A stretch of DNA of 55,073 nt from the IMG/VR virus record IMGVR_UViG_3300045911_000603. One strand, 5' to 3'. Below the pieces are notes generated by a model. The model ran no database searches, was not told where the DNA came from, and worked only from the letters and a program-made list of their open reading frames with translations. Of this stretch, positions 8,775 through 54,326 are shown piece by piece. The position numbers and the translations under genes were made by a program. This stretch comes from an uncultured virus (IMG/VR IMGVR_UViG_3300045911_000603) (lineage: Duplodnaviria; Heunggongvirae; Uroviricota; Caudoviricetes). Positions within the stretch are counted from its first letter, which is position 1. Every line of letters starts with the position of its first letter.

Positions 8775-8819
8775 AAACTTTGCCGAAAGGCACTGGAGAC
8801 TGCTTGGCGGTCGAACTAC

Positions 8820-8860: not shown

Positions 8861-8916
8861 TTGGAAAAACTTGACAAGTTGAGTAAATGAAAATAACACG
8901 AGGACTCTATGGCAAC
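8861..8916 (+). repeat. Direct repeat copy 1 (promoter, operator, RBS and ATGGCAAC)
   Basis: Near-identical to 9878-9934 (one indel, one substitution); contains TTGACA and ACTTGACAAGTTGAGT (8869-8884). Confidence 0.95.
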
Positions 8917-8971
8917 GCCAGTGGTTTGAGCACCAACACGGACTGCCGTTCCGTGGCGTGCTGATCCATTG

Positions 8972-9064
8972 GACGAACGCTGACCTATGACTGCCGCGCA
9001 AATACAGCCCGAACTTGCCACCGACTCCGACGCGGCAGACATTAGGTCCACCACCTCGTTGTCC
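8972..9064 (+). mobile_element. attC-like recombination site
   Basis: GACGAAC...GACCTATG/CAT-T-AGGTC (extrahelical base), CTGCCGCG/CGCGGCAG stem, ...GTTGTCC. Confidence 0.55.
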
Positions 9065-9874
9065 GTTTCTCGCCCCGTGGTCCGCTGGCACGGTGGGAAA
9101 TGGAAAATAGCCCCGTGGATAGTGAGCCACTTCCCGAAACATCGGGTCTATGTGGAATCCTTCGGCGGTGGTGGGTCTGTTCTCATGCGCAAAAAACGTA
9201 GCTATGCCGAGGTCTATAATGACCTCGACGGGGAAATTGTGAACCTTTTCCGGGTGCTCCGGGATCGCGGCAATGAATTGAGGGAGAAAATCGAACTGAC
9301 TCCTTTCGCTCGCGTGGAATTCCGCGAAAGCTACTTGCCGACGGAGGATCCAATTGAACAGGCACGCCGAACTCTCGTCCGTTCATTCATGGGATTTGGA
9401 TCGAACGCACACAACAAAAATACCGGATTCCGCTCGAACACGACACGTTCAGGAACGACACCTGCGCAGGACTGGAGGAACTACCCGGAAGCCATCGCTG
9501 CCATGATTGAAAGGCTGCGTGGCGTGGTGATAGAAAACCGAGAAGCCTGCGAGGTCATGCTGGCCCACGATGGCCCGGAAACGCTGCACTATGTGGACCC
9601 GCCCTACGTGCCAGAAACTCGGGACAAAGGCAGCGACTATCGGCACGAAATGACCGAGGACGATCACCGAAAACTTGCGGCCGTGCTGGAAAGCCTGACG
9701 GGTGCCGTGGTTCTCTCGGGCTATCGGTGCGGGCTTTACGACGAACTTTTTGCTGGGTGGAAGCTCGTCGAACGTCGCGCATTTGCTGACGGAGCGCGGG
9801 AGCGGGTGGAATGCCTGTGGCTCCGCAACGTCGAAATCACGCCAGACTTATTTTCTGCCAACGCAGAGGTATGA
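8987..9874 (+). CDS. DNA adenine methylase (D12/Dam-like class)
   Basis: WHGGK, YVESFGGGGSV, EVYNDLD and YVDPPY motifs. Confidence 0.93.
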   Translation: MTAAQIQPELATDSDAADIRSTTSLSVSRPVVRWHGGKWKIAPWIVSHFPKHRVYVESFGGGGSVLMRKKRSYAEVYNDLDGEIVNLFRVLRDRGNELREKIELTPFARVEFRESYLPTEDPIEQARRTLVRSFMGFGSNAHNKNTGFRSNTTRSGTTPAQDWRNYPEAIAAMIERLRGVVIENREACEVMLAHDGPETLHYVDPPYVPETRDKGSDYRHEMTEDDHRKLAAVLESLTGAVVLSGYRCGLYDELFAGWKLVERRAFADGARERVECLWLRNVEITPDLFSANAEV

Positions 9875-9877
9875 ATT

Positions 9878-9934
9878 TTGGAAAAAACTTGACAAGTTGA
9901 GTAAATGAAAATAACACGAGGAATCTATGGCAAC
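9878..9934 (+). repeat. Direct repeat copy 2 (ssb promoter, operator, RBS and start)
   Basis: Contains ACTTGACAAGTTGAGT (9887-9902), GAGGA and the ssb ATG at 9927. Confidence 0.95.
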
Positions 9935-20027: not shown

Positions 20028-20030
20028 TTT

Positions 20031-21776: not shown

Positions 21777-21791
21777 CCCAAGCCAACCTCT

Positions 21792-23198: not shown

Positions 23199-23223
23199 AT
23201 TTGCAGCCGGTTTATCGCAAAAA

Positions 23224-23239
23224 ACTTTACTTGTTGAGT
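23224..23239 (+). promoter_or_regulatory. Operator motif upstream of the pilM-like gene
   Basis: ACTTTACTTGTTGAGT. Confidence 0.6.
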
Positions 23240-23264
23240 AAAATGCTGTTTTTTCCGTTACCGC

Positions 23265-26226: not shown

Positions 26227-26247
26227 TCCAAAAAGCAAAATACGACC

Positions 26248-28206: not shown

Positions 28207-28226
28207 GACGCCTCATCCATTATGCC

Positions 28227-28862: not shown

Positions 28863-30544
28863 AGTTTCCCGATATTGACATCAATATCCCGGATGGCGAA
28901 GTGCCGCGCATTATCGCCTTGCTGCGCCAACGAAATCCCGCCTTGGCGCATCTCTCCAACGAGGAGATTATGCAAAAGGCACCCAGGGAACAGGTGATGG
29001 CATCCATCGCTTTTCTGCAAGGGATGCCCTATATCAGCAAAATTGCTCATCTGGTGTCTGACGAACTGCTCGCGCAGTTCGATCCCGGCATTTTGCGACG
29101 GGGCGGCATGGTTCCGCTAACCATGAATTCCAAGCGGCTCACGATTGCCGTGGCCAATCCCTACGAGAGCTTTGCCGTCGATTATTGCAGTCAGCAATTC
29201 CGTCTGGAGTTGGTGGTGCTAATGGGGGGCGGCGCGGATATTGCCCGCATCATCGAGAGCCGGGGAGCCAGTGGACCATCGGAGGAGGATCTCGCCACAA
29301 TTGAAATGGTCAACGAAGGCGATGATTCCCTGAGCTTCTCCATCAGCGATCCGAGTGAGGATGTGATGACCGAGCTGGTGCGGTCCATATTTGTCCAGGC
29401 CGTGGCGGTCAATGCCAGCGACATTCACATCAAGACGGAAGAAAATGCCTTTTACAGCATGTTTCGAGTGGATGGCGATTTATGTATGCGCAAGGACTAT
29501 GACCCGGGACTCAAAGCCCGCATGGATGCCTTCCTGCTCAACATGGTCAAAATCTCCAGGGACGACGCATCTCGCTATCCGGCCGTTAGCTCCCGGCTGA
29601 CGCTCAAGCGCAGCAATGGCCGCAAGATTGATGTTCGCTACGAAAGACACCGCGCCCACAGTGGCTACCACATCACGCTGCGCCTGCTCGACAAGACGCT
29701 CCTGGATCCCAAGTTGGGACAGGGTTCCCTGAGCTTCGATGCGGAAACCTTGCTGGAGTTGCGCAAGGTTATGGCCATGCCGGACGGTATTCTCATCATG
29801 TCTGGACCGACCGGATCTGGCAAGAGCACGACACTTGGGGCCATGCTCCGGGAAATCTATCAGCCGAAATACAATATCATGACGCTGGAAAACCCCGTCG
29901 AAGATGTGATCCCGGGCGTGATCCACTGCGACATGAAAAGCAACGAGGAGTTCCCTCTCTATTTTCGCTCCATGATGCGCTCGGATCCAGACGTGTTGCT
30001 GGTCGGCGAAATACGCGATAAATCATCGGCAGAACTGGCCGTGGAGGCCGCCATAACCGGCCACCAAGTTTTGACGACCACCCATGCCAATTCTGCGGCG
30101 GATATTTTCAACCGATTGGCTCTCATCGGGGTGGAACGGTGGAAAATCGCCGCCACAGTGCGAGCGTGCTGCGCCCAAAGACTGCTCAAGCGGTTGTGCC
30201 CGCACTGCCGCCAACGGCACGAAATTACTGCTCAGGAGGTAGCTTTGTATAATTTGCCGGACTCGATGTTGGGGAAGGAAGTCTATTCGGCTAAACCTGG
30301 AGGATGTATGGAATGCAATGGCCGGGGCTATAGTGGACGAATGGCTGTCCTCGAAATCCTTCCGATCAATGAAGAAACCAGTGACTTCTTGATTTCACCT
30401 TCTCATTCGACCTACCAAATCCAGAAGAAGATTCGCTCGCAATACCCCCAGCTTCGCTCCTTGCGGGAATCTGCTCTGCAAGCCATTATCAGCGGTCAAA
30501 CCGATTTGGTTTCCGTGGCCGATCAAATCAACCTTGCCTACTAA
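28859..30544 (+). CDS. pilB: Type IV pilus assembly ATPase PilB/GspE
   Basis: ASDIHI, GPTGSGKSTTL, TLENPVE, MRSDPDVLLVGEIRD, CPHC/CMEC zinc motif, GYSGR. Confidence 0.95.
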   Translation: MKFPDIDINIPDGEVPRIIALLRQRNPALAHLSNEEIMQKAPREQVMASIAFLQGMPYISKIAHLVSDELLAQFDPGILRRGGMVPLTMNSKRLTIAVANPYESFAVDYCSQQFRLELVVLMGGGADIARIIESRGASGPSEEDLATIEMVNEGDDSLSFSISDPSEDVMTELVRSIFVQAVAVNASDIHIKTEENAFYSMFRVDGDLCMRKDYDPGLKARMDAFLLNMVKISRDDASRYPAVSSRLTLKRSNGRKIDVRYERHRAHSGYHITLRLLDKTLLDPKLGQGSLSFDAETLLELRKVMAMPDGILIMSGPTGSGKSTTLGAMLREIYQPKYNIMTLENPVEDVIPGVIHCDMKSNEEFPLYFRSMMRSDPDVLLVGEIRDKSSAELAVEAAITGHQVLTTTHANSAADIFNRLALIGVERWKIAATVRACCAQRLLKRLCPHCRQRHEITAQEVALYNLPDSMLGKEVYSAKPGGCMECNGRGYSGRMAVLEILPINEETSDFLISPSHSTYQIQKKIRSQYPQLRSLRESALQAIISGQTDLVSVADQINLAY

Positions 30545-31753
30545 ATGCCTCATTTTTCCGTAGAACTCCGCAGTATCAACGATCCCGACAAAACAAAAAA
30601 GGTCGAGGTCGATGCTCCCAACAAAGAATCAGCCCGCAGAATTGCCGCTGAAGGCAATTGGAGGGTGATCGGCGTGGAATCTTCCCCCCGCAAGGGCAGG
30701 GTAACCGGCGTTTCCCAAATCAAAGGCAAGCTCCTCGTGCGTTTTTGCTCATCTGTGGGATCGCAACTCAAGGCACAAATCTCCTTGCAGGATGCGCTCA
30801 CATTTTATGCCGCCCGTCTCCAGGACAGGAACTTGCGTGCGGCCTTGGGCGGAGTCGTGGAATACCTGCGGCAAGGGGAGGGGGCAGGAAGGGCTTTTGC
30901 CTTGGTCAATGTTTTCGACCCTATTTTCGTCGGACTCATCAAGGCGGGCGAGACATCGGCCAACATGCCGGATGCCTTTTTTGGGATCGCCCGCTTTAAC
31001 AAAATCCGCCTGGATGCTACATCCCGCGTTAAGAAAGCCATCGCCGTTCCGCTGGCCACCATCATTTTTGTGTATTTCATCTTCGTGGCCGCGATGACCA
31101 ACCTCACGCCGAAAATCGAGGGCATGTTGTTGGATTTTGAACAAGAACCCGATCCCTTCTCGGGAGCCATGTTTGCCGTCTCTCATTTTGTGCAGGCGAC
31201 CTGGATTCCCATCACGCTCGGCATGATCGTTCTGACCTTGGTCCTAATTTTTGCCCGCAATATTCGCACGCAGATCATCAATATCCTCATGGCCAAATTC
31301 CACATGGTCAAGGAACTGATTATGAGTTACCGGCAACTGGTGTTTTTGAGCACTTTCCAGATGCTCTATAACAACAAGATCGAGGTGCCGGAAGCCTTGG
31401 AAACATGCTCTTTTGTGCTGCGCACAAACCCGATGGGGGACGAACTCCGCACGGTCAAAGAGAAGTTTGTCGTGGGGGAGAAATTGGCCAAGGCCATCGA
31501 GAACTATACCTCGTGTGATCCCGAAGTCTCCCATATGTTGGGAATTGGCGAGGAAACCGGAACAACGGGGGAACAGCTCAATCTTTTGGTGGGGCTTTAC
31601 GAGGACCGGCTGGCCCAGGCCATTGATGTCTTTTCCACCCGAACCCAAGTGATAATTTTCATTACCGCCGCCATTCTGCTGGGGTCATGCTATGTCGCCA
31701 GTTACCTGCCGGTAATTCTCATGGGGCCGAAAATGTTGCAGTCTGCCGGGTGA
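30545..31753 (+). CDS. pilC: Type IV pilus platform protein PilC/GspF
   Basis: AGETS and IGEETG motifs with a 3-TM arrangement. Confidence 0.9.
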   Translation: MPHFSVELRSINDPDKTKKVEVDAPNKESARRIAAEGNWRVIGVESSPRKGRVTGVSQIKGKLLVRFCSSVGSQLKAQISLQDALTFYAARLQDRNLRAALGGVVEYLRQGEGAGRAFALVNVFDPIFVGLIKAGETSANMPDAFFGIARFNKIRLDATSRVKKAIAVPLATIIFVYFIFVAAMTNLTPKIEGMLLDFEQEPDPFSGAMFAVSHFVQATWIPITLGMIVLTLVLIFARNIRTQIINILMAKFHMVKELIMSYRQLVFLSTFQMLYNNKIEVPEALETCSFVLRTNPMGDELRTVKEKFVVGEKLAKAIENYTSCDPEVSHMLGIGEETGTTGEQLNLLVGLYEDRLAQAIDVFSTRTQVIIFITAAILLGSCYVASYLPVILMGPKMLQSAG

Positions 31754-34514: not shown

Positions 34515-35345
34515 ATGTCAATGAAATGCAAACAGGCAATTGCCGAACTGGAGAATGAAGTTCGCATTCTTTCCAAGGGCCGCACCCTGACCGCGAAGTG
34601 CAAGAAACTAATCAAACTCCTCAAGGAGCAATACACGTTGGGAACCGTGAAGGTGAAGTTATCCAACCTGCGCAAGAGCCTTGGCGAAGGGCACCCAGCA
34701 TTGGATAAACTCAAGCTCACAGATGCCGATTATGTGGTCCTCAAGAGGGGGTGGAACAGCCAGGTTGTCGCTGACCACAGGAACCTGCGTCCTTTGTCTC
34801 CGCAAGAATTGCTTGGCCGAGCGTTATGGATCATGCAGGACAAGGCATCCAGCGGTCTGGCCCTGGCCTTGGCCCTGGCCCTCGTCACCGGGCGCAGGAC
34901 GTTCGAGGTTATGGTTTGTGGAAACTTCAAGTCCGTTGAAGGCAGGGAGGATGTCTTGCACTTTTCCGGCCAAGCAAAGACCCGCAATGCTCCAGGCACA
35001 CGATCATCCTACATCATCCCGGTTCTGATCCCGGCCCCAACCATCTGCAAGGCGTTCAAGCGGCTACGGAAAATCTGCCCCCTCGCAGGAATGAGCAGCG
35101 AGCAGTTTCACAATCTCTATGGGAAGAGACTGCACGAAGCATGCACGGATACCTTCGGGGCTGACTTCACCCCGAAGCTCCTGCGCAGCGCATACGCCTG
35201 CATTTGTGCCGCATGGTTCAAGCCGTCCAATATGACCGATGTGGTGTATTTCTCGGATATTCTTGGCCACCGACTCCTGAATGATGAGGCTGCTGACATG
35301 GCAACTGCCTTGCACTACCAAGACTTCTACATTGAGGATCAATGA
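34515..35345 (+). CDS. Protelomerase (hairpin telomere resolvase), compact form
   Basis: LALVTGRR..EV, FSGQAKTR, Y.IP.L, LRSAYA, ILGH and TALHY (R-K-R-H-Y catalytic set present). Confidence 0.9.
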   Translation: MSMKCKQAIAELENEVRILSKGRTLTAKCKKLIKLLKEQYTLGTVKVKLSNLRKSLGEGHPALDKLKLTDADYVVLKRGWNSQVVADHRNLRPLSPQELLGRALWIMQDKASSGLALALALALVTGRRTFEVMVCGNFKSVEGREDVLHFSGQAKTRNAPGTRSSYIIPVLIPAPTICKAFKRLRKICPLAGMSSEQFHNLYGKRLHEACTDTFGADFTPKLLRSAYACICAAWFKPSNMTDVVYFSDILGHRLLNDEAADMATALHYQDFYIEDQ

Positions 35346-38188: not shown

Positions 38189-40501
38189 ATGGCTGGAAAC
38201 CAAAAGCTGGATGACTTTGGGGAAAAAATCGGCGGGGCACGGAAGGACGTATTCCGCAGGAAATTCAGCGTGGAGGCGTTTGACCAACTCAACGCCATCG
38301 AACGCGAGAGCCTTATCACCCGGAACTCGATCTGGCCGACCCCGGACTGGAAAACACTCCATGAGGAGCAGCGCGCTCCGGTGCGATTGCTTTTTTGGGT
38401 GAAAAGTCTGCGGGATTCCATCGCTGCATCTCCCAATCGAAGTGCTGGGCACGAGGACAGCGATGATGCGCAAACGACGGCGGCGCAGAAAGTCTATGCG
38501 AAGCTCGTCTGCGAGGTCAGGGACCGTTGCATGGAGGCCATCGCCGGAGGCGAGGAATTGGAGCAACTGGCAGTCTCGGTGCAAAGCATCTATCGGAGCA
38601 TTTGCGAGGAAGCAGGCGAACCGAAGTTTGGGAGGATCATCGATCATGATTACAGAGCGTTCCGCCGCCTCAAAGGGATCGCCAGAGCAAATACGTTCGC
38701 GGGACTGTTGGAGAAAACCATCCCATTATCCAAGGATGATCCCGACTTTGAAAGCAAGAATCGTCGGCGGGAGTTTTTTGTGGAATCCATGGAGAGGGAA
38801 ATCGCCCGAACCGGATTCCCGAACACAGCAGACAGGGCAATCGAAAAACGCAGTCGCAACCTGGGTTTCTACATCCGCAGCGTGGAGGACTCGGATAAAT
38901 TTTATGTGTGGACGGAATACGCGACGATTGCGCCGGAGGAGGCGAAGAAAGAGTTTGCCGCCCGTCAGTTTGACACACACGAGGAGGCCCAGGCAGCCAT
39001 TTTGGAGTTCATTCGGGAAGCCCTAGCCCAACAGAAGAAAAGTGCCGATGCGGATGTGTGGCGGGTGCGTCCCCAACTCAAAAACGTGAGGAGGGAAGGA
39101 CTGCCCGACCATCGCAAGGGGGCCAATGCCACGCCGGAACTGTTCATGGAAACCTTCGGTTTTCGCGGAGGGGAGTTCGGCAACTGGCTCAATCAAGAGG
39201 ATCGGCAGCAGTCCTTCAACCATGCCTTTGATGCGCTGATGGACTTGGCGCAGGCTGTGGGGATTCCTCCGCGATCACTTTCCCTGGGAGGCACCCTGGC
39301 CATTGCGTTTGGGGCCAGAGGTCATGGTGGGCGGGCCGTCGCACATTACGAACCGGCGCGGCAGGTGATGAATCTCACCAAGATGAATGGGGCGGGTTCT
39401 TTGGCGCACGAGTGGGCGCATGCCCTGGACAACTTTTTGGCCGACAAGATATCGTATCAAGGGAAACATTCTAATGCTTTTCTGACGGACTTAATTAACG
39501 AAAAAAGATTTCATAGCCGTTATTTCTTTGACCTGCCGAACGATGAGGAAGAAAGACTTCGCTCGATTTGTAATGGGATGGATGCGTTTTTCACCAACCT
39601 GAAGAGTGCTCCTGCCAAGGTGGAGGATATTCAGGCAAAGGCACACCAAGGAGTGGAACGCATGGTCAGACAACTCCATCAATGGGCGGGAGATAGTCAG
39701 AACCTCTTCAGTCCAGAGTTGAATCCACTGCATCACAAGATTCCCGAATCTGTGGTCCATCGCTGGAATGAACTGGTCACGAAGATGGTGGACCCTCAAT
39801 CGGATTTCGACCACCGCAATCACTTACGCGAAATGGACGGAATTCTCAAAAATGTCGCCAAGGCGATCCTGCCAGAACTCAAGCAAATTGCAGAGAAGGA
39901 CGAAGGTCTGAAAATGCGTGTTTTCTTTTGCGAGAGAATGGCTCGGAGCGGGCTTGGATCATCCAAACGCGATGGAATCCAAAACAACCGAATGTTTCTT
40001 TGCAGGTATCACCATGAGTATGTCTCCGCAGAAGCCATTGCGCAAACCTCAAGGGTCAAGAGCGAATTCCTGAAGGATGCAATCGAGAAGGACAAGTCCC
40101 GCGCAACGGCTTATTACTCAAAGCCAGTGGAACTTTTTGCTCGCGCCTTCGAGTTCTGTGTGCAGCAACGCATCGAAGCGGTCAACGGTCGCCGCAGTCA
40201 GTATCTTGTGCATGGAGCAGACCGTCCACCAGTCTATCCAGGAGGGGAGGATGCAAAACGGATCATCGAAAGTTTCGGCAAGCACCTGCTGCCTGCGGTT
40301 TCGCTCATGCTCGGTGAGGGCGAAACATTGTCCGAGAATGCCATCGAGACGACGCAACGCACAGTCGATGCGATCAAGCAGGAAATCCGCGAGCGCATGA
40401 AGGAAATTCCTCCCTCCCAATGGGCCAAGGATGAGCGCATCCGAGAACTTTCCAAGGAGGTCAAGATGATGGCCGAACCAACCCAGGGAATTACTGCATG
40501 A
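38189..40501 (+). CDS. Large polyvalent protein (LPD5/LPD1-type domains, zincin-like HExxH)
   Basis: DFGEKIGGARKD, FGFRGGEFGNW, LAIAFGARG, GSLAHEWAHALD and YYS.P.ELFARAFE. Confidence 0.85.
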   Translation: MAGNQKLDDFGEKIGGARKDVFRRKFSVEAFDQLNAIERESLITRNSIWPTPDWKTLHEEQRAPVRLLFWVKSLRDSIAASPNRSAGHEDSDDAQTTAAQKVYAKLVCEVRDRCMEAIAGGEELEQLAVSVQSIYRSICEEAGEPKFGRIIDHDYRAFRRLKGIARANTFAGLLEKTIPLSKDDPDFESKNRRREFFVESMEREIARTGFPNTADRAIEKRSRNLGFYIRSVEDSDKFYVWTEYATIAPEEAKKEFAARQFDTHEEAQAAILEFIREALAQQKKSADADVWRVRPQLKNVRREGLPDHRKGANATPELFMETFGFRGGEFGNWLNQEDRQQSFNHAFDALMDLAQAVGIPPRSLSLGGTLAIAFGARGHGGRAVAHYEPARQVMNLTKMNGAGSLAHEWAHALDNFLADKISYQGKHSNAFLTDLINEKRFHSRYFFDLPNDEEERLRSICNGMDAFFTNLKSAPAKVEDIQAKAHQGVERMVRQLHQWAGDSQNLFSPELNPLHHKIPESVVHRWNELVTKMVDPQSDFDHRNHLREMDGILKNVAKAILPELKQIAEKDEGLKMRVFFCERMARSGLGSSKRDGIQNNRMFLCRYHHEYVSAEAIAQTSRVKSEFLKDAIEKDKSRATAYYSKPVELFARAFEFCVQQRIEAVNGRRSQYLVHGADRPPVYPGGEDAKRIIESFGKHLLPAVSLMLGEGETLSENAIETTQRTVDAIKQEIRERMKEIPPSQWAKDERIRELSKEVKMMAEPTQGITA

Positions 40502-44251: not shown

Positions 44252-46372
44252 ATGGGATTTCACACCCGCACAATCCAAGCCCTGGAGAAGCAGTCCAGCG
44301 AAGTGAAGGCACGGGCCAACAAGCTGGCGGCGGATCTCGTGCAAGCCTCGGCGGGGGCATTTCCTCTCGGAATTGCCGTGGAGTCCAACCATATCCAAAA
44401 CCGCTGGAAAGCTTTATTCCCGGATGAACCCTGCCGCCTGGACAAGATGGCAGTGACATTTCTCTGGCGGGTGGGAAAAATCCGCGAGGTCGATGGGTTT
44501 GCTTCCACCTACCAAATCAATCCCGATTTTGTGCAAGGAGACACCAGCCGGAGTCCATTGATTCAAAGGATGACCCCGTTTGATGGGGTGGCTCCTGAAC
44601 AATCGGACCCGGATAACAAATCGAAGATGTATCCGGCTCTTATGGTCACGCATCGGGCCACGAAATGCCCGGTGGCCTCGCTGCCGCTCTACCTGTGCAA
44701 ACTGCTCAGGAGCGAGCCGGAGTGGGTCATGGACACTGCCCTGCGACTCGGCAAGAAGGCGCAGTTTTATTACGAAAAAGGGGTGGAAATCGTGGACCTG
44801 GATACCGTGGCAGACAACGCCAGCGACAAGGCCAAGGAACTTCGGCGGGCCGTCAAGCTGCTGCCCAACGTGGTCTTGCCGGAGGAAACCACCTTGGCCA
44901 TCGGATCGGTCTTGGCTCGGTTTATCGAGGAGGATGCGTCGCGTGCTCCTCGGGGATTGCTTCTGCACGGACCTCCCGGAACCGGAAAAACCCTCATCGC
45001 CAAGGAGATGGCTGAATCCATCCCCGCTGCGAAGTTTTTTTCCCTCTCGCTGCCGGATCTCAAGCAGGGGTATCTCGGGCAAAGCGGGCAGGCTGTCCGG
45101 CAAATCTGGCAGCAAGTCAAAGAAGCGGGCACAGCCGTTCTCTTCGTTGACGAGTGCGAGGGCGTTTTCTCCCGGCGCGGAGGGGTTTCTTCGGATGTGC
45201 TCCAAGGCGAAATCGTCCAGGCATTTCTGGCAGAGTGGGATGGGCTTTCGGCCAAGGATAACACGCACAAATGCCTGGTGGTGGGAGCCACTAATCGGTT
45301 GGATCTGATCGACGAGGCCATTGTTTCGCGCTTTGAGCAGTCGGTGGAAGTCCCGCTTCCCGATGCCAAGGCCAGGGTCTATATCCTGCATAGCGAATTG
45401 GGCGGAACTCTGCCCTTTGCGGAATCCAAAATTGCCGAATGCACCAACGGTTTCTCGGGCCGCGATCTGCGCACCTTGGCCAAGCAAATACGAAGCAAGG
45501 CTTTGGAGGGGCATCTTTCCGAGCGGGAACTCTCGGCAGCTTGCCAAAAGATTCGTGGCCGCGTCGCGGAATCCTCCGAGCACAAGCTGACTTGGGATGA
45601 TCTGGTTCTCGAAGCCTCGGCCAAGGAAAACTTGCAGACCGTGTGCTCCATGCTCCAACATGCCGATGTGCTTGCCGAGCAGGGTATCTCTCTCCCCAGG
45701 GGACTGCTCTTATACGGACCTCCCGGCACCGGAAAAACCCTCATCGCCAAAGTGATGGCTGCCGAAAGCGGCATGACGTTTCTCAGTGCCAGCACCGCAG
45801 AAATCAAGGCTGGCTATATCGGACAAAGCGGGCAGAAGGTGAGAGAACTATTTGAACGTGCTCGCTCCCAATCTCCCTGCATCCTTTTCATCGACGAAAT
45901 CGACATTCTGACTCCATCGCGCAGTTCGGGAGATTCCTTCAACAAGGAAATCGTCGGTCAAATGTTGCAAGAACTCGACGGTGTGCGCAAACATCCCGGC
46001 CATGTGTTCATCCTGGCGGCAACCAACTGCATGGAGGAGGTGGATGCAGCAATTCTTTCTCGGTTCCCCACCCGGCAAAATGTGCCACTTCCGTCCACGG
46101 AAGAACGAAGTGCGATTATCCAAACGCTCCTCAAAGGCAAGCCTTCCAAACTGACCAAGGAAGAAATTGATCTCATTGCAGATAATACATCAGGAGCCTC
46201 CGGCAGGGATCTTCGATCTCTTTTGGAGGACGCGGAAAAAAAAGCAGTTCGCCGAGCGATCAAAAATGGCGATCCGCGTTCCGTGGTCATTACATTCGAG
46301 GACTGGTCTATTTTGCCGCCGCCGATCACAACCACGCATGGGACTCCGTGTTCCATCGCCTCATGCGTATAA
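44252..46372 (+). CDS. Double-domain AAA+ ATPase (CDC48/VCP-like architecture)
   Basis: Two GPPGTGKT Walker A, FVDE/FIDE Walker B, ATN and SRF motifs. Confidence 0.92.
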   Translation: MGFHTRTIQALEKQSSEVKARANKLAADLVQASAGAFPLGIAVESNHIQNRWKALFPDEPCRLDKMAVTFLWRVGKIREVDGFASTYQINPDFVQGDTSRSPLIQRMTPFDGVAPEQSDPDNKSKMYPALMVTHRATKCPVASLPLYLCKLLRSEPEWVMDTALRLGKKAQFYYEKGVEIVDLDTVADNASDKAKELRRAVKLLPNVVLPEETTLAIGSVLARFIEEDASRAPRGLLLHGPPGTGKTLIAKEMAESIPAAKFFSLSLPDLKQGYLGQSGQAVRQIWQQVKEAGTAVLFVDECEGVFSRRGGVSSDVLQGEIVQAFLAEWDGLSAKDNTHKCLVVGATNRLDLIDEAIVSRFEQSVEVPLPDAKARVYILHSELGGTLPFAESKIAECTNGFSGRDLRTLAKQIRSKALEGHLSERELSAACQKIRGRVAESSEHKLTWDDLVLEASAKENLQTVCSMLQHADVLAEQGISLPRGLLLYGPPGTGKTLIAKVMAAESGMTFLSASTAEIKAGYIGQSGQKVRELFERARSQSPCILFIDEIDILTPSRSSGDSFNKEIVGQMLQELDGVRKHPGHVFILAATNCMEEVDAAILSRFPTRQNVPLPSTEERSAIIQTLLKGKPSKLTKEEIDLIADNTSGASGRDLRSLLEDAEKKAVRRAIKNGDPRSVVITFEDWSILPPPITTTHGTPCSIASCV

Positions 46373-46795: not shown

Positions 46796-46983
46796 AAGAA
46801 GCTACATTCAAAAAAGGCGACTTGGTCAAAATTCGCCCCGAATGGCAGGACCATGGTGATGAAACCTTAGAGTGGTTCTGCCTTGAAGATGAGGATGACG
46901 GGCGTGTCTGCATTCAGCCCAAACTCGGACTGCCAATTGAACCCAACCAAGTCGTATCTGTTGACATGATCGAACACGCATGA
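46792..46983 (+). CDS. Small hypothetical protein (SH3-like barrel?)
   Basis: FKKGDLVKIRPEW; coupled to the NUDIX gene. Confidence 0.55.
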   Translation: MKEATFKKGDLVKIRPEWQDHGDETLEWFCLEDEDDGRVCIQPKLGLPIEPNQVVSVDMIEHA

Positions 46984-46989
46984 AAGGAG

Positions 46990-47246
46990 ATGAGATCAAC
47001 ACCATGAATCGGCCTCTGACAGACACCGAAATCAAAGGCGCGCTTGTGAATAGTGCGAACGCCGAGATTTGCCACGCCGCACCGACCAGTGGCGTGACCA
47101 CGAAGAAAACCGCCAACGGGTCGGCGTTGGCATACTTGAAAGGTTAGGAATCCTATGAACCTGCAATACTGCACGGCAAAAGAAGCCCTTTATGAAATCA
47201 ACACCATGAATCGGCCTCTGACAGAGGCCGAAATCAAAGGCGCGCT
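46990..47246 (+). repeat. 55-bp direct repeat pair (46990-47044 and 47192-47246)
   Basis: 3 mismatches between copies; the pair brackets the first attC-like site. Confidence 0.9.
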
Positions 47247-47364
47247 GATCAACGCGCTTGAAAAGATCGCTCGACTCGAAGAGGATCTCAAGGAAGTTGA
47301 ACTGGCAGCATACCAAGCTGCAAATACGGCTAGCTGTCTGGCGAACGGCATAATTCCAGACTAA
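47155..47364 (+). CDS. Small cassette-like hypothetical protein
   Basis: 69 aa; its stop falls inside an attC-like site. Confidence 0.55.
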   Translation: MNLQYCTAKEALYEINTMNRPLTEAEIKGALINALEKIARLEEDLKEVELAAYQAANTASCLANGIIPD

Positions 47365-47583
47365 TATGACCGCGAATAATGCCCCCACTTCACCCTCGAC
47401 TTCAACGCGGTCAGCGTTGGGTCAATCCGCTGGTTCGGATTTTTATGACGCTCAATCTCGCCGCCGCTTCTGCTTGCTCTGTCAAGGAGCAGGCGGGTGG
47501 CCAGTGGCCGTGCTGGTGCATGACCGCTGGACGCAGGAGTGGAAAAAGTGTCATGCCTGTAATCCGAAGGTCCGTGATGACCG

Positions 47584-47982
47584 ATGAATACCAGCGAAAC
47601 AGACGTTGATTGCAAGGTGGGAGATTCCGATGGTAGGCATTTGGTCCATCGCCTTGTTCGGGGATTTTCGCCTTGTCGAGTGCAACGCCGCAGGTCTAAG
47701 GGCTGGCGGATGCCGGAAAACACCGTGAGCGTATGCAGGCCGGGCAAGTGGGGAAATCCATTTCCGGTGGGCAAACCTGCCAAGGATGTCCCTGCGAAAT
47801 ACCGTGGAATTGTCGCCACCGACCCCTCGCACGCAGTTGAGTTATATAGGCAGCTAATTGCAGAATACGGCCTCCCTTTTGATTGCGACATCGAGGAATT
47901 GCGCGGCAAGAATCTTGCCTGCTGGTGCAAGGCTGGAGAGCCATGCCATGCCGACATTCTGCTTGAACTTGCGAACGCATAA
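47584..47982 (+). CDS. DUF4326-family protein
   Basis: RPGKWGNPF, LRGKNLACWC and PCHADIL. Confidence 0.9.
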   Translation: MNTSETDVDCKVGDSDGRHLVHRLVRGFSPCRVQRRRSKGWRMPENTVSVCRPGKWGNPFPVGKPAKDVPAKYRGIVATDPSHAVELYRQLIAEYGLPFDCDIEELRGKNLACWCKAGEPCHADILLELANA

Positions 47983-47986
47983 GCTC

Positions 47987-48613
47987 ATGGACGCCGACCC
48001 TAAATATCCTCAGCAAGAAGGGCGACTCTCGGCGTTCCATGCAGCGTCTTGTTCGTCTTTGCCGCCGGTCCTGGATGCGTCTTGCTCTACTCGGATGTTC
48101 TGGTTCGACAAGCAAGATGACCGTGCGCTGTATGTGGACAAACGCCAAGTGACCCGCATCATAGATGTTGGCACGCCGGGGACGATTGGACGCACACCAA
48201 AAACCGTTGCTCCTGACATCGTGGCAGACTTCCGCAATCTGCGATTTCCCGATTGTTCGTTCTGGCACGTTGTGTTCGACCCGCCGCACTTCCACAAAGG
48301 AGCAGGCGCGACCGGGCGCATAGCCTTCGACTTCGGCCTACTGGATGCCACATGGCGAGAAGACCTCCGAGCAGGAATCGCTGAGTGCTTCCGCGTCCTC
48401 AAGGGTAACGGGACGCTGATCTTCAAATGGTGCGAGGCTGAAATACCGCTCCGCGAAGTGTTGGCACTCACGCCAGAACGCCCGCTCTACGGCCACCGGA
48501 GCGGAAAGAAAGCGCAGACTCACTGGGTGGCATTCTTGAAGCCGAACGTCCGTGATGACCGGCAGCTACCCGGCCACACGGCGCAACCTCAAAACCAACC
48601 TCCGACCGGGTAG
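47987..48613 (+). CDS. Small SAM-dependent (probably adenine DNA) methyltransferase
   Basis: VLDASCSTRMFWFDK, PD..ADFR, VVFDPPH, ECFRVLK..GTLIFKW. Confidence 0.88.
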   Translation: MDADPKYPQQEGRLSAFHAASCSSLPPVLDASCSTRMFWFDKQDDRALYVDKRQVTRIIDVGTPGTIGRTPKTVAPDIVADFRNLRFPDCSFWHVVFDPPHFHKGAGATGRIAFDFGLLDATWREDLRAGIAECFRVLKGNGTLIFKWCEAEIPLREVLALTPERPLYGHRSGKKAQTHWVAFLKPNVRDDRQLPGHTAQPQNQPPTG

Positions 48614-48645
48614 CTTTTCGGTCGATCACATTGTTCGACAATTTG

Positions 48646-48894
48646 ATGCCACGCAAGAAATCCCAAATCAAAACAGATCGCCTGAACTTTTGGCTGCCCA
48701 ATGCCCTTTGCGAGCGGGTTAAAAAGGTGGCGGCAGAGAAGGGATGGACGATCACAGAAGCCGCTCGAAACCTCATAGCCGAAGGGCTGGAAAGCCACGG
48801 AAGGTCCAGTCTGCGCGACGAAATCGAGGAGTTGAAACGACGCATGGATATTTTGTCGAACGCCCAAGATCACCAACAGAAGGAAGCAAAATGA
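48646..48894 (+). CDS. Ribbon-helix-helix DNA-binding protein
   Basis: RLNFWLP..L.ERVKK.A...G.TITE..RNLI..GL. Confidence 0.7.
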   Translation: MPRKKSQIKTDRLNFWLPNALCERVKKVAAEKGWTITEAARNLIAEGLESHGRSSLRDEIEELKRRMDILSNAQDHQQKEAK

Positions 48895-49208
48895 AATCTG
48901 AACAACACGATCCCAAGCGACTCGCCGAGGTAATGAGATCAGTCATAGAACTGGTCTATGCTGCAAGAGATGTTAGGGAAATGATGTCTCGTCCACCCGG
49001 AGGTAAAGACATGCGTGATATTGCCCGAGTGTTTGCGCGGCTGCATCTTGCGCTGGAGCCGTTTTCTGATTTGCCGAACGTCAAGGTCAGCCACGAGGCT
49101 GGCGAGAAAGGAGCAACGAAAAGCCTTCGGGAAATCTGCCAAGATCTGCTTGCCGCCTGCCCAGACAAAAAACTTCCAGAAGTCCAAACCTTTCTAAAAT
49201 CCCTGTAA
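48891..49208 (+). CDS. Hypothetical protein
   Basis: Coupled on both sides (ATGA and TAATG). Confidence 0.55.
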   Translation: MKSEQHDPKRLAEVMRSVIELVYAARDVREMMSRPPGGKDMRDIARVFARLHLALEPFSDLPNVKVSHEAGEKGATKSLREICQDLLAACPDKKLPEVQTFLKSL

Positions 49209-50974
49209 TGGCCAAAGAACTCACCCAAAACGAAATAACCAGCCGGGAATTGGAACGGCTTGTCGCCAAAATAGAACAAAAGGATTTACGAGAACAAATC
49301 CAACAAGCTATTGCCAAGTTGGAACTTCATAAAAGCTACGGGCTGCGTTTTGAACGACACATTCCAGAAATCATCACACACGACAACAAACCAATTCCCC
49401 TTGGTGGTAAATACTTCCCATGGCTCAAAAAAATAGACCAAGTGCAAGGTGCAAAACCCAAAGGTCCAGAGCATATCCTAATCGAATCAGATAACTACGT
49501 TGCCTTAAAATATCTACAATACACACACCAAGGAAAAATTGACGTAATTTATATTGATCCACCATATAACACAGGCGCGAAAGATTGGAAGTATAACAAT
49601 AACTACGTCGATGGCGAAGATGTGTTTCGGCACAGCAAATGGTTATCATTCATGGAAAAAAGGCTAAAACTAGCAAAAAGGCTTCTAAATCCAGACGGAG
49701 TGCTTATTTGCTCTATTGACCACTATGAACTATTTCCACTAGGCATGCTGCTAGAAGAAATCTTCAAGGGGTGGGAAGTTACACAAACGGTTGTAGTAAA
49801 TAATCCATCAGGACGCTATAATCAGCCGTTCTCCACATGCCACGAATACCACTTGATAGTCCACAGACCCAATAAAAAAAGTAAGCCAATTTTTCTTTCC
49901 GAAACCGAGTTGGGAAAAAAATTCCCCAAAAAAGATAACTCCGGAAGATACAAATTAAGAAGTCTAATAAGAAACTCAAATACTGCCGGACTAAGAAAAC
50001 AAAGACCACTCATGTGGTTTCCTATCTGGGTTGACAAAGAAGGAAAGAACATATCAATAGAAAAAAAATCTGAAGAACAAACCCCACTATTCCCCATCGA
50101 CAGCAAAGGAATAGAAAGAACATGGTATTGGAATAAAACCGGAGTAGAGACAAAACTGAACGATATAATAGCAATAAAAAGTAAAGGACTCATAAAACTC
50201 TACTTCAAAGAAAGAGAAAAAACCGGAGTATCCCCTAAAACGGTTTGGATGGGACCAGAACATAACTACACAACACAAGGAACAGGCACGTTAAAAGACC
50301 TACTACCATCCACCACATTCAATTTCCCAAAGTCTGTAGAAACCGTCAAATTCGCCATCGACCGTTTTCTACCAAGAAACGGAACCTGCTTAGATTTTTT
50401 CGCAGGATCAGGCACGACCTTCCAAGCCGTTGCAGAACTCAACGAAGCCGATGGTGGAACACGCCAGTGCATCCTTGTTACCAACAATGAGTCTAACATC
50501 TGCCGAGAAGTCACATGGGAACGGGTGAAAAGGGTCACCACCGGAACCCATGCCTATGCCGAATGCACCAAAAAATACGATGGGAACCCAAGAGCCCACG
50601 CAACATTCTACACTGTAGAGATCTACAGTGAAAACGAAATCGAGAAGATTTCCCGAGGATGGAAGCAAAACATGGAGGGATACCTCCCGCTTCTTTCCAC
50701 AAAGCTCAACCTACCACACAAGTGGACCCGGATACCCGACACAAAAGGTTTCTACCAGAAAGAAGCCGCCATCGTTGACGTGACCGAATTGGACTATGAA
50801 ACACAACAATTCTTAAAGAAATCGGGAGCAAAGACTCTTGCCATCATATCAGATGACAAAGAAGAGTTCCACCTTGCAGCAGCCAGATGCAAAAAAACAA
50901 CCAAGATAAAAGAATACATATTTCTCCCTAGAGAATACACCAACTACTTTGAAAGCTTCCACACAAAAGAATAA
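49208..50974 (+). CDS. mod: Type III R-M methyltransferase subunit
   Basis: YGL.FE.H, LIESDN, IYIDPPYNTG, HSKWLSFM..RL, FPK, LDFFAGSGTT. Confidence 0.92.
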   Translation: MAKELTQNEITSRELERLVAKIEQKDLREQIQQAIAKLELHKSYGLRFERHIPEIITHDNKPIPLGGKYFPWLKKIDQVQGAKPKGPEHILIESDNYVALKYLQYTHQGKIDVIYIDPPYNTGAKDWKYNNNYVDGEDVFRHSKWLSFMEKRLKLAKRLLNPDGVLICSIDHYELFPLGMLLEEIFKGWEVTQTVVVNNPSGRYNQPFSTCHEYHLIVHRPNKKSKPIFLSETELGKKFPKKDNSGRYKLRSLIRNSNTAGLRKQRPLMWFPIWVDKEGKNISIEKKSEEQTPLFPIDSKGIERTWYWNKTGVETKLNDIIAIKSKGLIKLYFKEREKTGVSPKTVWMGPEHNYTTQGTGTLKDLLPSTTFNFPKSVETVKFAIDRFLPRNGTCLDFFAGSGTTFQAVAELNEADGGTRQCILVTNNESNICREVTWERVKRVTTGTHAYAECTKKYDGNPRAHATFYTVEIYSENEIEKISRGWKQNMEGYLPLLSTKLNLPHKWTRIPDTKGFYQKEAAIVDVTELDYETQQFLKKSGAKTLAIISDDKEEFHLAAARCKKTTKIKEYIFLPREYTNYFESFHTKE

Positions 50975-50977
50975 ATT

Positions 50978-53428
50978 ATGGAACCACTACCATTTCAATC
51001 TGAAAAAGCCAAAGAACTCACACAGGAGATTCTTTCAGGCCTGTCCGCTGAAAAGACGAAGATCATCACATTACAAGCTCCAACCGGATCAGGAAAAACA
51101 CTGATCGTAACAGAAGCAATCAGGCCAATCCTCAACGAAGCCGCCTTTATCTGGATGTCATACTACCCGGACATCAACTCCCAGTCGTCTGGCAGGCTAA
51201 AACGCTATGGGATTCCTTCCAATAACATTGAAGAGATTTCAGCCGACGCAGGGATTAACCATTTGGAACGTGGAACCATATACTTCATAAACTTTCAAAA
51301 GCTGGCACCGGGGAACAATCTGGAACGAGGAGGGGATACCATCACCCCATTCAGAACATTATTACAAAATGCCCTATACCAAGGTATCCCTATTGTTGCG
51401 CTAATTGATGAAGCACATTTTGGTAGTGCATCTAGAAGAGACGTTAACGATTCCATGTCTATACTTGAGAATATCATCTGTTCTCCAGAATACCCAATAA
51501 ACTGCATAATAGGAATTACAGCAACCCCCGAACGATTCAAAACCTTGATTGAACGTGTAGAAAAACATCCCAACAACACGGTTGGTGCTAACACTTCACT
51601 GCCAAAAATATCACACGAAACGGTTAAGGAAGCCAAACTTCTTAAACATGATTTAGACATTACTACCGCAGCTCATACTGGAACAGACTTTGCTCGTCAC
51701 GCACATACAATCTGCGGAAATGCATTAAAGGAATGGAAACAAATAAAATTGAGATGGGCGGAAGAAGATGATTCTATTTATCCGCTACTTATCATTCAGA
51801 TTCCAGACAAATTTGACGAAGATAACACGCAGTTTATACAATCTTTTTGCCAACTATACAAAGATGTCACAGAAAGTGATCTAACACCTGATGAAATCAG
51901 GCATTGTTTTTCAGGGGGCAAAAGCCCTTGGGAAATCGAATACATCAAGCCACAAGACATTCAAGAATCATATCATGTCAAAGTGGTGTTTTTCAAATCT
52001 GCACTGACGACAGGATGGGACTGCCCAAGGGCAGAAATGCTCATCTCATTAAGATCTGCAAAAGATCAAACGTCAATCATACAACTTGTTGGAAGAATGC
52101 TCCGAAACCCCAAAGGATTCCAAGTGGAAAACCCTGAAAATCCCGATCTGGACATCGCCTTCCTCTACCTGCCTTTCTACGACAAGGCCGTGCTGGAAAA
52201 CATCCAAAAAGAATACAGAGAAGGGCTTACCGGAGATGTGAGACAGCATGCAGAACGTGTGACCTTAACTTGGAATCCAAAACTATCAGATAAACGTGAA
52301 AGAATAGAAGAAATACTAAAAACTCTTCCAACTGCAAAACGCGTTTGGAAAAGCAAAAACTTAGCAAGTCGAGTAAAAGAGCTTCGGGAAGCACTGATAT
52401 CAGCACCACTCAAAAAAGAAAACATCGACACCAAAAAACTGGCCGGAATGCTCTCCTCCTGGCTGGATGATCTCAAAAATGAGATCATCACATCCGCAGG
52501 GGAACAACTCCACAGAATCAAGGGGAAAACCAAGCTCGAAGGCATCGAACTCCAGAAAATCCGGATGGAAATGCCCATGGCGAGAACGGACCTAGCAGAA
52601 TTGGACGAACGGGATGAAAGAAAATGCTTCCGTCACTTGGAAGACCGGATTCCAAAACTTAAGGAGGGCGTCAGCGAAGACATCCTAAGGGAAGCCAACA
52701 GGGCTTTACGCGAAGACACTACAAAAAACCCGGATGGGCTCAAGTTTCCTATCTTGATTCTCCATGGAAAAGAAAAGCTCCTGCAAATAATCCAAGACTC
52801 CGTTAAACGGTGCCATAAAAAACTGGAAGATGCAGTGGAAATCATTCGCACAGATCTAGCGCAATCCGACTCGAAACCAAGGCGCGAGATGCGGGCTCTC
52901 GCCAGCTCGCTGCTTGACATCGACTGCACAATTGACTACGTGGAATGGGTCTGCCCAGAGGAACAAACATCCATCAAATCAGATGATTGGGTTGAAGCCC
53001 CCAAATGCATCCATTGCTGGGAAGGAAAAGTCCCCCCCGGATCACTGCCAGAACAAGTAGTGCGGAGAAAAATGGAGCAAGACCCCAATGTGGTTGCCTA
53101 CCTGAGAAACCCACAAAAAGGCAACGGGCTTGGCATCCGCTACACCAACCCCAACAGAACCGATGACATCACCTTCCCTGATTTTATCGCCATTGAGAAA
53201 ACAGATGGGGGAAACCACCAGATTCGGATCATCGAATGCAAAGGGATGGAAGAACGTGGGAAGGAACCCCAGAAATACAGGGGGCTTGCTGACTACGAGA
53301 AAAAACTCAGAGGGAACACTCAATTGGTCACCTGCGAATGGGTGGAAGTAGTGGACGGACAAATCAGACGTGCCCGGCCAACAGCAACAACCTACGAGCA
53401 GAGATGCGGGGCGATGAACCTGCTCTAA
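50978..53428 (+). CDS. res: Type III R-M restriction subunit (SF2 helicase plus PD-(D/E)XK nuclease)
   Basis: QAPTGSGKT, IDEAH, TATP, GWDCPRA, QLVGRMLR, FPDFI...IECKG. Confidence 0.88.
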   Translation: MEPLPFQSEKAKELTQEILSGLSAEKTKIITLQAPTGSGKTLIVTEAIRPILNEAAFIWMSYYPDINSQSSGRLKRYGIPSNNIEEISADAGINHLERGTIYFINFQKLAPGNNLERGGDTITPFRTLLQNALYQGIPIVALIDEAHFGSASRRDVNDSMSILENIICSPEYPINCIIGITATPERFKTLIERVEKHPNNTVGANTSLPKISHETVKEAKLLKHDLDITTAAHTGTDFARHAHTICGNALKEWKQIKLRWAEEDDSIYPLLIIQIPDKFDEDNTQFIQSFCQLYKDVTESDLTPDEIRHCFSGGKSPWEIEYIKPQDIQESYHVKVVFFKSALTTGWDCPRAEMLISLRSAKDQTSIIQLVGRMLRNPKGFQVENPENPDLDIAFLYLPFYDKAVLENIQKEYREGLTGDVRQHAERVTLTWNPKLSDKRERIEEILKTLPTAKRVWKSKNLASRVKELREALISAPLKKENIDTKKLAGMLSSWLDDLKNEIITSAGEQLHRIKGKTKLEGIELQKIRMEMPMARTDLAELDERDERKCFRHLEDRIPKLKEGVSEDILREANRALREDTTKNPDGLKFPILILHGKEKLLQIIQDSVKRCHKKLEDAVEIIRTDLAQSDSKPRREMRALASSLLDIDCTIDYVEWVCPEEQTSIKSDDWVEAPKCIHCWEGKVPPGSLPEQVVRRKMEQDPNVVAYLRNPQKGNGLGIRYTNPNRTDDITFPDFIAIEKTDGGNHQIRIIECKGMEERGKEPQKYRGLADYEKKLRGNTQLVTCEWVEVVDGQIRRARPTATTYEQRCGAMNLL

Positions 53429-53498
53429 CCACAAACCTATTGTAATTTTCCCAACTCAGCAGGCTACAGCCCAACTAAGAAACCATGTTTAACCCTAG

Positions 53499-53996
53499 AT
53501 GAAACACTACCTAACCAAAACAGCAGAGACAGCCAGCTCCAATGAACTGGAAGCTGTAAAATCTCTAATCCTACAAGGCATGGACAAGCTAGGATTAAAA
53601 CCAGATCCAATACTGGATGGGGATCTGAGAAACTTACAGGAAACCTACCGCCCCCCAAACTCAATGATCTTGATCCTCGATCCACAAACAAACATCATCG
53701 TCGGTTGTGGAGCCATCCGGACCCACACCAACCAAAGCGGAGAAATGCGCAGAATCTACATCCAAGAATCTCACCAAAACCGTGGAATTGGAACCCAAAT
53801 TATTCGAGAGTTAATCCATCAGGCATCCACTTTAGGTCTCAAACAATTATGGACCAGAACCACCACCAAAAGCAAAGGCACAGAGCTTTACAAAAAGCTG
53901 GGGTTCAAAATACGGCCCTGCACCGATCCCAAAGAAAGGGCCGGAACAGTCGAACTCATAATAACTCCCAAACCAATACTGAAAACAACCAGATGA
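53499..53996 (+). CDS. GNAT acetyltransferase
   Basis: IVGCGAI, EMRRIYI...HQNRGIG and LYKKLGF. Confidence 0.88.
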   Translation: MKHYLTKTAETASSNELEAVKSLILQGMDKLGLKPDPILDGDLRNLQETYRPPNSMILILDPQTNIIVGCGAIRTHTNQSGEMRRIYIQESHQNRGIGTQIIRELIHQASTLGLKQLWTRTTTKSKGTELYKKLGFKIRPCTDPKERAGTVELIITPKPILKTTR

Positions 53997-54326
53997 AACA
54001 CAAAATGTTGCAGTTCGATTTATTTTCTTCATGTTTGTTCTATGAGTTCACACCCCATGTCTGCCGGGAACCGACAGACTGCGCTCGTGGAGTTAGAACA
54101 GCGACGCTCGCAATTTCTCCCTTGTCAGACGCACTGGAGGCGAAGGTCACGAGAGTGCGGAAGGGATGGCCGCAACACTGACAGAAGGCACGGCCCCGAA
54201 ACCCGTTTCGGTAAATGCGGAGATGAGCGACAGGATAGCGACTCCAATAGCGGGGAACCAGTTAACCTGTGACAGTCGGAAAGACGGCCCGCGCACTCGG
54301 CTGGTGACGGGTGCGCGGTCATTTGT

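Follow-up and report, generated by a model that had tools for sequence, protein, structure and literature searches.

We analysed a stretch of 55,073 nucleotides (nt) from an uncultured virus (IMG/VR record IMGVR_UViG_3300045911_000603), here called the window, in which a row of small genes between positions 46980 and 49208 is interspersed with hairpins that resemble attC, the recombination sites of integron cassettes. An earlier note on this DNA, made from the letters alone, had read the row as an integron-like cassette array. The features of the array, and those of a second, smaller locus near 9 kb, are as follows; the strand given for a site is that on which it fits the attC layout.

46980..47147, plus strand: short open reading frame (ORF) with a 55-nt partial copy (46990-47044) of the gene at 47155; enters site A in the AAC phase
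47054..47149, minus strand: site A; authentic left arm and inner stem, chimeric right end
47155..47364, plus strand: gene for 69 amino acids (aa) with a homologue in phage G001; closing core lost in the window
47366..47439, minus strand: remnant of site B; loop, right arm and GTTCGGA core kept, left arm deleted; 8.7 bits, E 2.8
47444..47587, plus strand: cassette with a 47-aa ORF; its own cores TTCGGA and TCCGAA match at 6/6 bases; stop within site C
47563..47662, minus strand: site C; complete attC geometry; AAG, with G for C at the crossover; predicted crossover 47568/47569
47584..47982, plus strand: DUF4326 gene (PF14216, phrog_464); start within site C, stop within site D
47970..48057, minus strand: site D; intact attC; 7/7 L-box pairs, two extrahelical bases; predicted crossover 47975/47976
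47987..48613, plus strand: DNA methyltransferase cassette gene (phrog_954); start within site D, stop within site E
48541..48639, minus strand: site E; intact attC; predicted crossover 48546/48547
48646..48894, plus strand: ribbon-helix-helix (RHH)/Arc-like cassette gene; flanking cores 7/7 complementary
48855..48880, minus strand: half-site F; core, 6-nt spacer and left L box only
48891..49208, plus strand: front-truncated cassette gene, reading through half-site G
49073..49100, minus strand: half-site G; left arm only; end of the array, with neither a docking junction nor intI after it
49208..53428, plus strand: type III restriction-modification pair (Mod, Res), low in GC
8912..8971, minus strand: degenerate hairpin opening at AAC in a duplicated ssb start; a probable second broken site
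8972..9063, minus strand: site H; CGAAC/GTTCG attC family; 6-nt spacer deleted, core degenerate
8987..9874, plus strand: Dam-family methyltransferase gene (PF02086, phrog_56); start within site H, stop in a left-arm stub

The motifs quoted in the earlier note are all present where it placed them. Its five palindromes of 88-100 bp are real hairpins, but only three of the five are complete, site A being chimeric and B lacking its left arm. The half-site it saw at 49073 consists of a left arm only, and 48855 is a second one of this kind. The similar site it reported before the methylase, at 8972, is genuine as well, but has lost its 6-nt spacer. The complete attC sites are C, D and E, all within 1.1 kb; the remaining ones (A, B, F, G and H) are chimeras or half-sites or lack the spacer. 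Within the window, neither the 47 kb left of the cluster formed by C, D and E nor the 6 kb right of it contains an integron integrase, and a cluster of at least two attC sites lacking a nearby integron integrase is known as a CALIN.

In the textbook layout, an attC site consists of AAC, 5 nt, an 8-nt L box with an extra base at position 4, a loop, a 7-nt L box, 6 nt and GTT. Our own geometric detector was built on this layout, which was checked against bacterial genome loci in which such sites are linked to an integron integrase (IntI). With strict settings the detector returned two sites in the whole window, at 47974-48053 (D) and 48545-48635 (E), and relaxing the core added a third at 47567-47658 (C); in 300 dinucleotide shuffles of the segment 46901-49300 it returned 0 sites. 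All three fit the geometry in the minus-strand orientation only. They share 7/7 L pairs, two extrahelical bases and asymmetric spacers of 5 and 6 nt, a layout also found at the IntI-linked genome loci, and the extrahelical bases pointed out in the earlier note are present in both of its examples (48552/48619 and 47983/48036). The AAC/GTT core pair closes the hairpin in D and E, and site C has AAG/GTT. The strands are predicted to fold in the manner of attC: the computed probability of the recombinogenic fold on the plus strand, which is the bottom strand of the sites, is 0.83 for D, 0.83 for E and 0.20 for C, and recombinogenic folding of the bottom strand is accordingly predicted for D and E and at a lower level for C. 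Our own covariance model (R1, 81 sites) scored C, D and E, which were part of its training set. Site H, which was not in the training set, scored 29.2 bits (E 2.4e-5), B reached only 8.7 bits, and site A received no score. A search of Rfam gave 0 matches, and ARAGORN found nothing. Pair counts on an alignment of the sites (A2, 96% paired) are circular because the sites had been chosen for pairing, and they were not used as evidence.

The cores of the array, CGAAC/GTTCG, had been described as non-canonical, a label that these data do not support. AAC/GTT is kept in D and E, and the CGAAC/GTTCG family adjoins IntI in bacterial genomes. IntI lies within 2.5 kb of such sites at eight genome loci (six above the TIGR02249 cut-off), and cores of this kind are therefore normal for the attC family. 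The chromosomal integrons of Planctomycetota and Verrucomicrobiota (IntI, TIGR02249) share the cores, the spacers and the position of the extrahelical base with the window, and sites C and E agree with an IntI-linked site in genome G017 at 41 and 42 of 52 arm positions, respectively.

The polarity of the sites relative to the genes was missed in the earlier note. Because all genes are on the plus strand and the sites fit in the minus orientation only, each gene occupies the bottom strand of attC and comes after its site, unlike the textbook cassette, in which a top-strand gene lies upstream of its attC. ORFs starting inside one site (47584, 47987, 8987) and stopping inside the following one, which the note had found unusual, are a consequence of this reversed polarity. 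The chromosomal integrons of the same phyla differ from the window in this respect, having top-strand genes (12/12 of those confirmed by Pfam) as well as intI and attI.

We compared the polarity of the attC family between two sets of loci. Both were collected with a degenerate pattern. The viral set comprised 94 stretches, 80 of them with flanks, and 57 of its 86 matches were true hairpins; the genome set comprised at least 134 stretches, 80 with flanks, mostly from Planctomycetota with some from Verrucomicrobiota, Acidobacteriota and others. The ORFs considered were 98 of the 99 listed for the viral set (one duplicate dropped) and 92 of the 95 listed for the genome set (one duplicate and two L439 ORFs excluded). 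Among them, all 16 PHROG-matched genes next to viral sites were reversed, 13 of these being DNA-modification genes, and all 12 Pfam-matched genes next to genome sites were canonical. Calls from amino-acid composition gave 22 reversed, 3 canonical and 25 uncalled for 50 viral sites, compared with 2 reversed, 32 canonical and 20 uncalled for 54 genome sites. A looser detector, run over all loci, yielded 43 reversed, 5 canonical and 47 uncalled viral sites, and 14 reversed, 66 canonical and 56 uncalled genome sites. An orientation test based on the longest ORF (39 versus 16 of 57) was weak and was replaced by the composition and profile tests.

The cores on the two sides of a gene are complementary, as the earlier note had claimed with three pairs from the window as examples. 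The single mismatch in TCCGAAG, which closes the 47-aa cassette, falls in the share of the next site, and it is the bases owned by the cassette that match completely; for the DUF4326 cassette, 4/6 owned bases match. All four variable bases of cores flanking the same gene match in 30/37 adjacent viral pairs, 44/64 genome pairs and 1/3 metagenome pairs, with a mean match of 3.73 for the viral pairs compared to 2.38 after shuffling. The core is crossed in phase by 7/7 window genes, 64/84 called viral genes and 39/102 genome genes (the Dam-family gene crosses AAC at 9860 in phase), and 83/99 viral sites have a stop codon in the core-crossing phase. Start and stop codons placed in a fixed phase within hairpins could also be expected of elements acting at the RNA level, such as terminators or translation-coupling structures. 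We find this explanation very hard to credit, as the hairpins have the integron geometry with asymmetric spacers and extrahelical bases, the sites adjoin IntI in bacteria, the cores flanking one gene co-vary, and a terminator scan gave no match spanning a whole site (8 short matches versus 4.2 expected).

The mobility of individual units was assessed from homologues in other contexts. Homologues of the array's methylase, 79-89% identical, occur in phages and metagenome contigs with other neighbours, and in L026, L497 and L498 they align from core to core (47972-47974 to 48547-48548). Among the 13 methylase loci of the junction comparison, nine combine close homology with an undamaged front end; L027/L493 and L497/L498 are near-duplicates. 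A D-like site lies upstream of the methylase in 8 of the nine (L026, L027, L493 and L495-L499, not L028), and site E lies downstream in 0/8 loci with a readable downstream junction. The RHH protein has an 80% identical relative in phage L654, with the same 7/7 cores and different sites on both sides, and a copy of site E, 95% identical, heads another gene in a phage contig (L001/L267). A search with a 17-nt site pattern returned 25 viral loci, comprising two full sites (L001, L009), one half-site (L025) and 22 chance matches within genes; among isolated phages and plasmids (28 and 1 records) it matched gene interiors only. No close homologue of the DUF4326 gene was found among viral contigs, the best segments being at most 55% identical. 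Homologues of the DUF4326 and Dam genes (80 loci each) were too distant for mapping ends, and most of the 16 DUF4326 ends listed have no following site, the AAC there being part of a conserved "LAN" ending.

The array occurs in hot-spring and microbial-mat sequencing runs, and four of the 12 runs listed were used for a comparison of strains (X1, X3, X9 and X10, with X1 and X3 representing one sample). X1 and X3 match the window. X9 and X10 contain a sister strain, whose backbone in X10 has 24 differing letters of 3,367 (99% identical). In record 11 of X10, the match to the window breaks off exactly after 47568, where site C has its predicted crossover, and is followed by 1,185 other letters; past this insertion there is a different DUF4326 allele, which differs at 18 letters of 314. 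X9 and X10 give no cover of the methylase, RHH and restriction-modification genes, which is not proof of their absence. Four short-sided joints (47363-48541, 47085-47366, 48582-54113 and 47140-54058) probably come from other elements and were not counted as excision. The methylase and RHH units and the strain insertion thus show what distinguishes a cassette, namely complementary cores of its own, occurrence in other contexts and breakpoints at cores, and gene order varies among relatives. Strands that do not fold like attC and an invariable gene order, the two outcomes by which the earlier note would have been refuted, were thus not what we observed. Cassette mobility is supported by these observations, and with the geometry of the sites and the homologues they bear out the earlier idea of a single-stranded DNA hairpin cassette system carrying phage-type genes and methylases.

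Other parts of the array appear to be decaying. The segment 47127-47363 is 90% identical to a gene of G001, a complete 50-kb phage, in which the copy of the 69-aa gene has no attC or GTT core ahead and ends in a normal core followed by an attC site. As the homology starts at 47127 without a core, the right outer end of site A, from about 47127, is the leader of a phage gene, and site A is probably not recombinogenic. Site B has lost its left arm, given that the G001 homologue of the gene upstream ends in a normal core. Likewise, the gene at 48891 has lost its front part, since its homologues P0123 and P0124 extend further at the N-terminus; another, P0122, ends in a different site. Near 9 kb, a 52-nt direct repeat (8865-8916, 9883-9934) encloses the Dam unit. 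Two copies of a 27-nt promoter-like motif containing TTGAC, present five times in the window (8862, 9880, 16575, 23217 and 44180), extend to this repeat and include the ssb start; the 23-nt core of the motif had no exact match in 670 fetched loci.

Such decay would also be expected if the array were a passive relic, that is, captured phage DNA with genuine reversed attC sites by origin that is reshuffled only by homologous or illegitimate recombination through similar arms. The fusion of site A with a phage gene leader, the broken state of B, F, G and H, the direct repeat around the Dam unit, the lack of a docking junction or intI remnant (see below), the RecT-like match at 10428-11621 and the difference between the DUF4326 alleles of the two strains can all be cited for this explanation, as can a 386-nt deletion in X9 and X10 (47069-47454), which does not end at cores, so that not all change is site-specific. 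We nevertheless consider it unlikely. The strain difference at site C begins exactly at the predicted crossover base, D and E retain perfect geometry, and the breakpoints of homologues cluster at AAC cores.

If the units are moved by a recombinase, its gene is not apparent in the window. No scanned protein matched an integrase model of NCBIfam or Pfam, tblastn with 6 IntI-family proteins gave a best E of 0.07 and no intI remnant, and no intI adjoins the array within the window as it would in a complete integron. The earlier note's statement that there is no integrase therefore holds within the window, but window proteins occur on a contig of 117,073 nt, 62,000 nt longer than the window, and about 62 kb, or about half of the contig, probably lies outside the analysed part.

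Reversed arrays elsewhere often have a characteristic end. In L029, L495, L570, L584, L627 and L649 an AAC core is followed by a short AT-rich stretch without a hairpin, and this junction directly precedes intI where the gene is present (L627, L649, L584), which makes it a candidate attI-like docking junction. It is absent from the window, where the array ends in half-site G, unlike these hairpin-less junctions, and where a promoter scan remained at chance level. The restriction-modification pair and half-site G occupy the position that the IntI-like gene has in related reversed arrays. Such a gene is found on the same element in L627 and L649 and in truncated form in L584, and an internally shortened one follows the array in the phage contig whose copy of site E is the closest. 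In the complete phage G001, one site received a score and PF00589 had no match. In G001 (L621, 13177-15878), the genes after the sole intact site have N-termini resembling decayed site sequence, which suggests that arrays may compact into fixed operons.

Bacterial genomes offer further possible sources of the enzyme. IntI above the cut-off is present in 86 of 301 genomes of Verrucomicrobiota, the phylum in which we place genome G008 (Ca. Didemnitutus), and sites of the CGAAC/GTTCG family in 19 of 151 genomes of that phylum. The Verrucomicrobiota loci comprise 17 of canonical polarity, 2 reversed (G017 and G008) and 7 uncalled. The reversed array of G017 belongs to a Mu-like prophage (L658, G017:C18 9088-11214), where it lies between early genes and head genes; its three reversed sites are followed by an IntI-like gene on the same strand that scores 262.7 bits (cut-off 265). 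G008 has a similar reversed layout with a shorter IntI-like gene (177.7 bits).

These arrays raise the alternative that the recombinase is encoded in cis, either by an intI elsewhere on the contig, for which some 62 kb outside the window leave room, or by the compact 276-aa protein with a ResT/TelK (protelomerase) catalytic domain at 34515-35345, which might recombine the hairpins. The ResT/TelK domain belongs to the tyrosine recombinase superfamily, and L627, L649 and, truncated, L584 are precedents for an IntI-like gene on the element itself. We regard a recombinase in cis as quite improbable. Where an intI accompanies such an array it is located directly downstream, a place taken in the window by the restriction-modification pair, and the 276-aa protein matches telomere-resolvase models only, not TIGR02249, which led us to reject it as an IntI; the query used for it found nothing in 401 genomes of the phylum. 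The protein hints at a linear, hairpin-ended replicon.

The remainder of the window encodes topoisomerase III, SSB, the RecT-like protein, a PD-(D/E)XK nuclease, UvrD and polyvalent domains. No capsid or terminase was found among the window proteins, and profile scans of 60 window proteins detected no relaxase, coupling protein or type IV secretion gene. The element looks plasmid-like, with two further loci of note:

18675-31753: type IV pilus locus with prepilins, a PilT/TraJ-like ATPase, secretin, PilB and PilC
35-933: CRISPR array with 14 repeats of 36 nt and 13 spacers of 29-31 nt

The nearest named relatives of PilB are mostly from Verrucomicrobiota, at about 45% identity, and a verrucomicrobial host is probable on this comparison. 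There is no cas gene in the window; cas genes are possibly located in the part of the contig outside it. The CRISPR spacers had no convincing target among the fetched loci, the best match being 21/30 against G001. A polyvalent protein at 38189-40501 has LPD1 and CLCA_X matches, and a double AAA ATPase is encoded at 44252-46372. A metagenome scan for the AAA protein yielded no relative (44 pattern matches, 0 confirmed), nor did a viral scan for P0123, and relatives of the backbone therefore come only from contigs of the sequencing runs. Run contigs of 28,624 nt appear to end near a Pro-Thr tandem repeat (18288-18496) in a 452-aa gene. The low-GC block at 49208-53996, comprising the type III restriction-modification pair and a GNAT acetyltransferase, has little or no cover in X9 and X10 and is possibly a recent insertion. 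Beyond it, 54058-54320 is a GC-rich, structured-looking non-coding stretch without an Rfam match; in each of the four runs, depth climbs beyond about 54130 and the contigs at this place do not agree with the window, which points to a repeated region.

Taken together, these results make it probable that the array came from phages, has partly decayed and is a phage-type reversed CALIN, recombined in trans, on a pilus-encoding plasmid-like element. An origin from phages is probable in view of the gene common to the window and G001 and of a 72-nt non-coding hairpin element at 8779-8850 that is 75% identical to G001 11766-11830. Several points weigh against this interpretation. Recombination is predicted only, and 5 or 6 of the 8 or 9 site-like elements are broken; site C has a changed crossover base, and the deletion in X9 and X10 ignores the cores. 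The looser detector shows 14 of 80 called genome sites as reversed and 5 of 48 called viral sites as canonical. The term plasmid is used for a window with no relaxase or type IV secretion gene, the host assignment depends on PilB relatives at only about 45% identity, and some 62 kb of contig lies beyond the analysed part. Finally, the pairing of site and gene is not fixed, with the RHH gene headed by another site in L654 and site E heading other genes. To account for such swapping of partners, bottom-strand exchange alone is not enough: either the other core must take part in exchange, or the arms must recombine by homology, or there must be a step in which cassettes are made.

We propose that these hairpins are genuine attC sites of integrons, from a family that bacteria of the Planctomycetota-Verrucomicrobiota-Chlamydiota (PVC) group use, and that a cassette of the window, with its gene on the bottom strand, consists of a site followed by a gene. 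The coding strand, once folded, would be bound by a recombinase of the IntI family and exchanged between A and C of AAC, as a result of which each site would travel with the gene after it, and the excised circle of site and gene would be inserted at another AAC junction. The loop of the site would supply many start codons and its left arm stop codons in one fixed phase, so that cassettes could join a running operon in any order. Phages of the same host group would have been the source of the array, whose docking junction and integrase would since have been lost and which would now be decaying, with D and E still intact. The enzyme would most likely be supplied in trans, by a chromosomal IntI of the host or by the IntI-like gene of a prophage, and the methylases would probably shield incoming DNA from restriction. 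Single-stranded DNA in conjugation or replication is reported to favour attC folding (PMC5371416).

Phage attC sites have been shown to recombine with attI1 under IntI1 (Qi et al. 2023, PMC9892861). The phage CALINs of that report share with the window the clustering of attC sites without an integrase, the small genes and the enrichment in DNA methyltransferases; unlike them, the window has no phage structural gene and looks plasmid-like. The genes of the window run along the bottom strand, overlapping the sites; the available passages of that report describe no such polarity, only divergent sites in one phage. CALINs of phages with methylases and working attC sites are thus already published. 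In attC, crossover takes place on the bottom strand, where A and C of AAC meet (Nivina et al. 2016, PMC5027507), and canonical sites as described there have R and L boxes, extrahelical bases on one arm, an unpaired spacer and a variable loop in common with those of the window. Along the predicted bottom strand, sites C and D have C as their first extrahelical base; site E has G, as do the sites tested in that study. AAG at the crossover of site C differs from the canonical AAC. The inverted-integrase integrons of Treponema (Cury et al., 10.1101/030866) likewise depart from the textbook orientation; as far as the available text goes, intI is flipped there relative to attC, whereas in the window it is the cassette genes that are flipped. 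Integrons with an inverted integrase are a different arrangement (10.1101/2022.02.06.479319, PMC13323075). A literature search, weak on subscription journals, yielded no publication that describes attC cassettes with reversed genes.

According to the textbook view, the structure of attC imposes a single polarity on integron cassettes. In our comparison a single attC family has canonical polarity in chromosomes and reversed polarity in viruses as well as in the plasmid-like element of the window, which is itself a decayed example and of limited value for that reason. The natural sites D and E permit a direct test of strand choice, for which L627 provides a candidate phage-type integrase, and the arrays give a handle on the open question of where cassettes originate. 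We speculate, as a tentative idea that may well prove wrong, that mobile elements of the PVC group run a mirror-image integron system of their own, with reversed cassettes that bring their own start codons and in-phase stops, IntI-like enzymes of prophages downstream of them, and exchange between phages and large plasmids of the cassettes as anti-restriction modules. If so, the window would show such cassettes on their way from phages into a plasmid that encodes a pilus, with shuffling among strains still going on, and the swapping of partners between sites and genes may show how new cassettes are made. The opposite polarities imply two gene pools with a common recombination chemistry that are unable to express each other's cassettes from the same promoter, and suggest that a separate pool of mobile genes is common to plasmids and phages.

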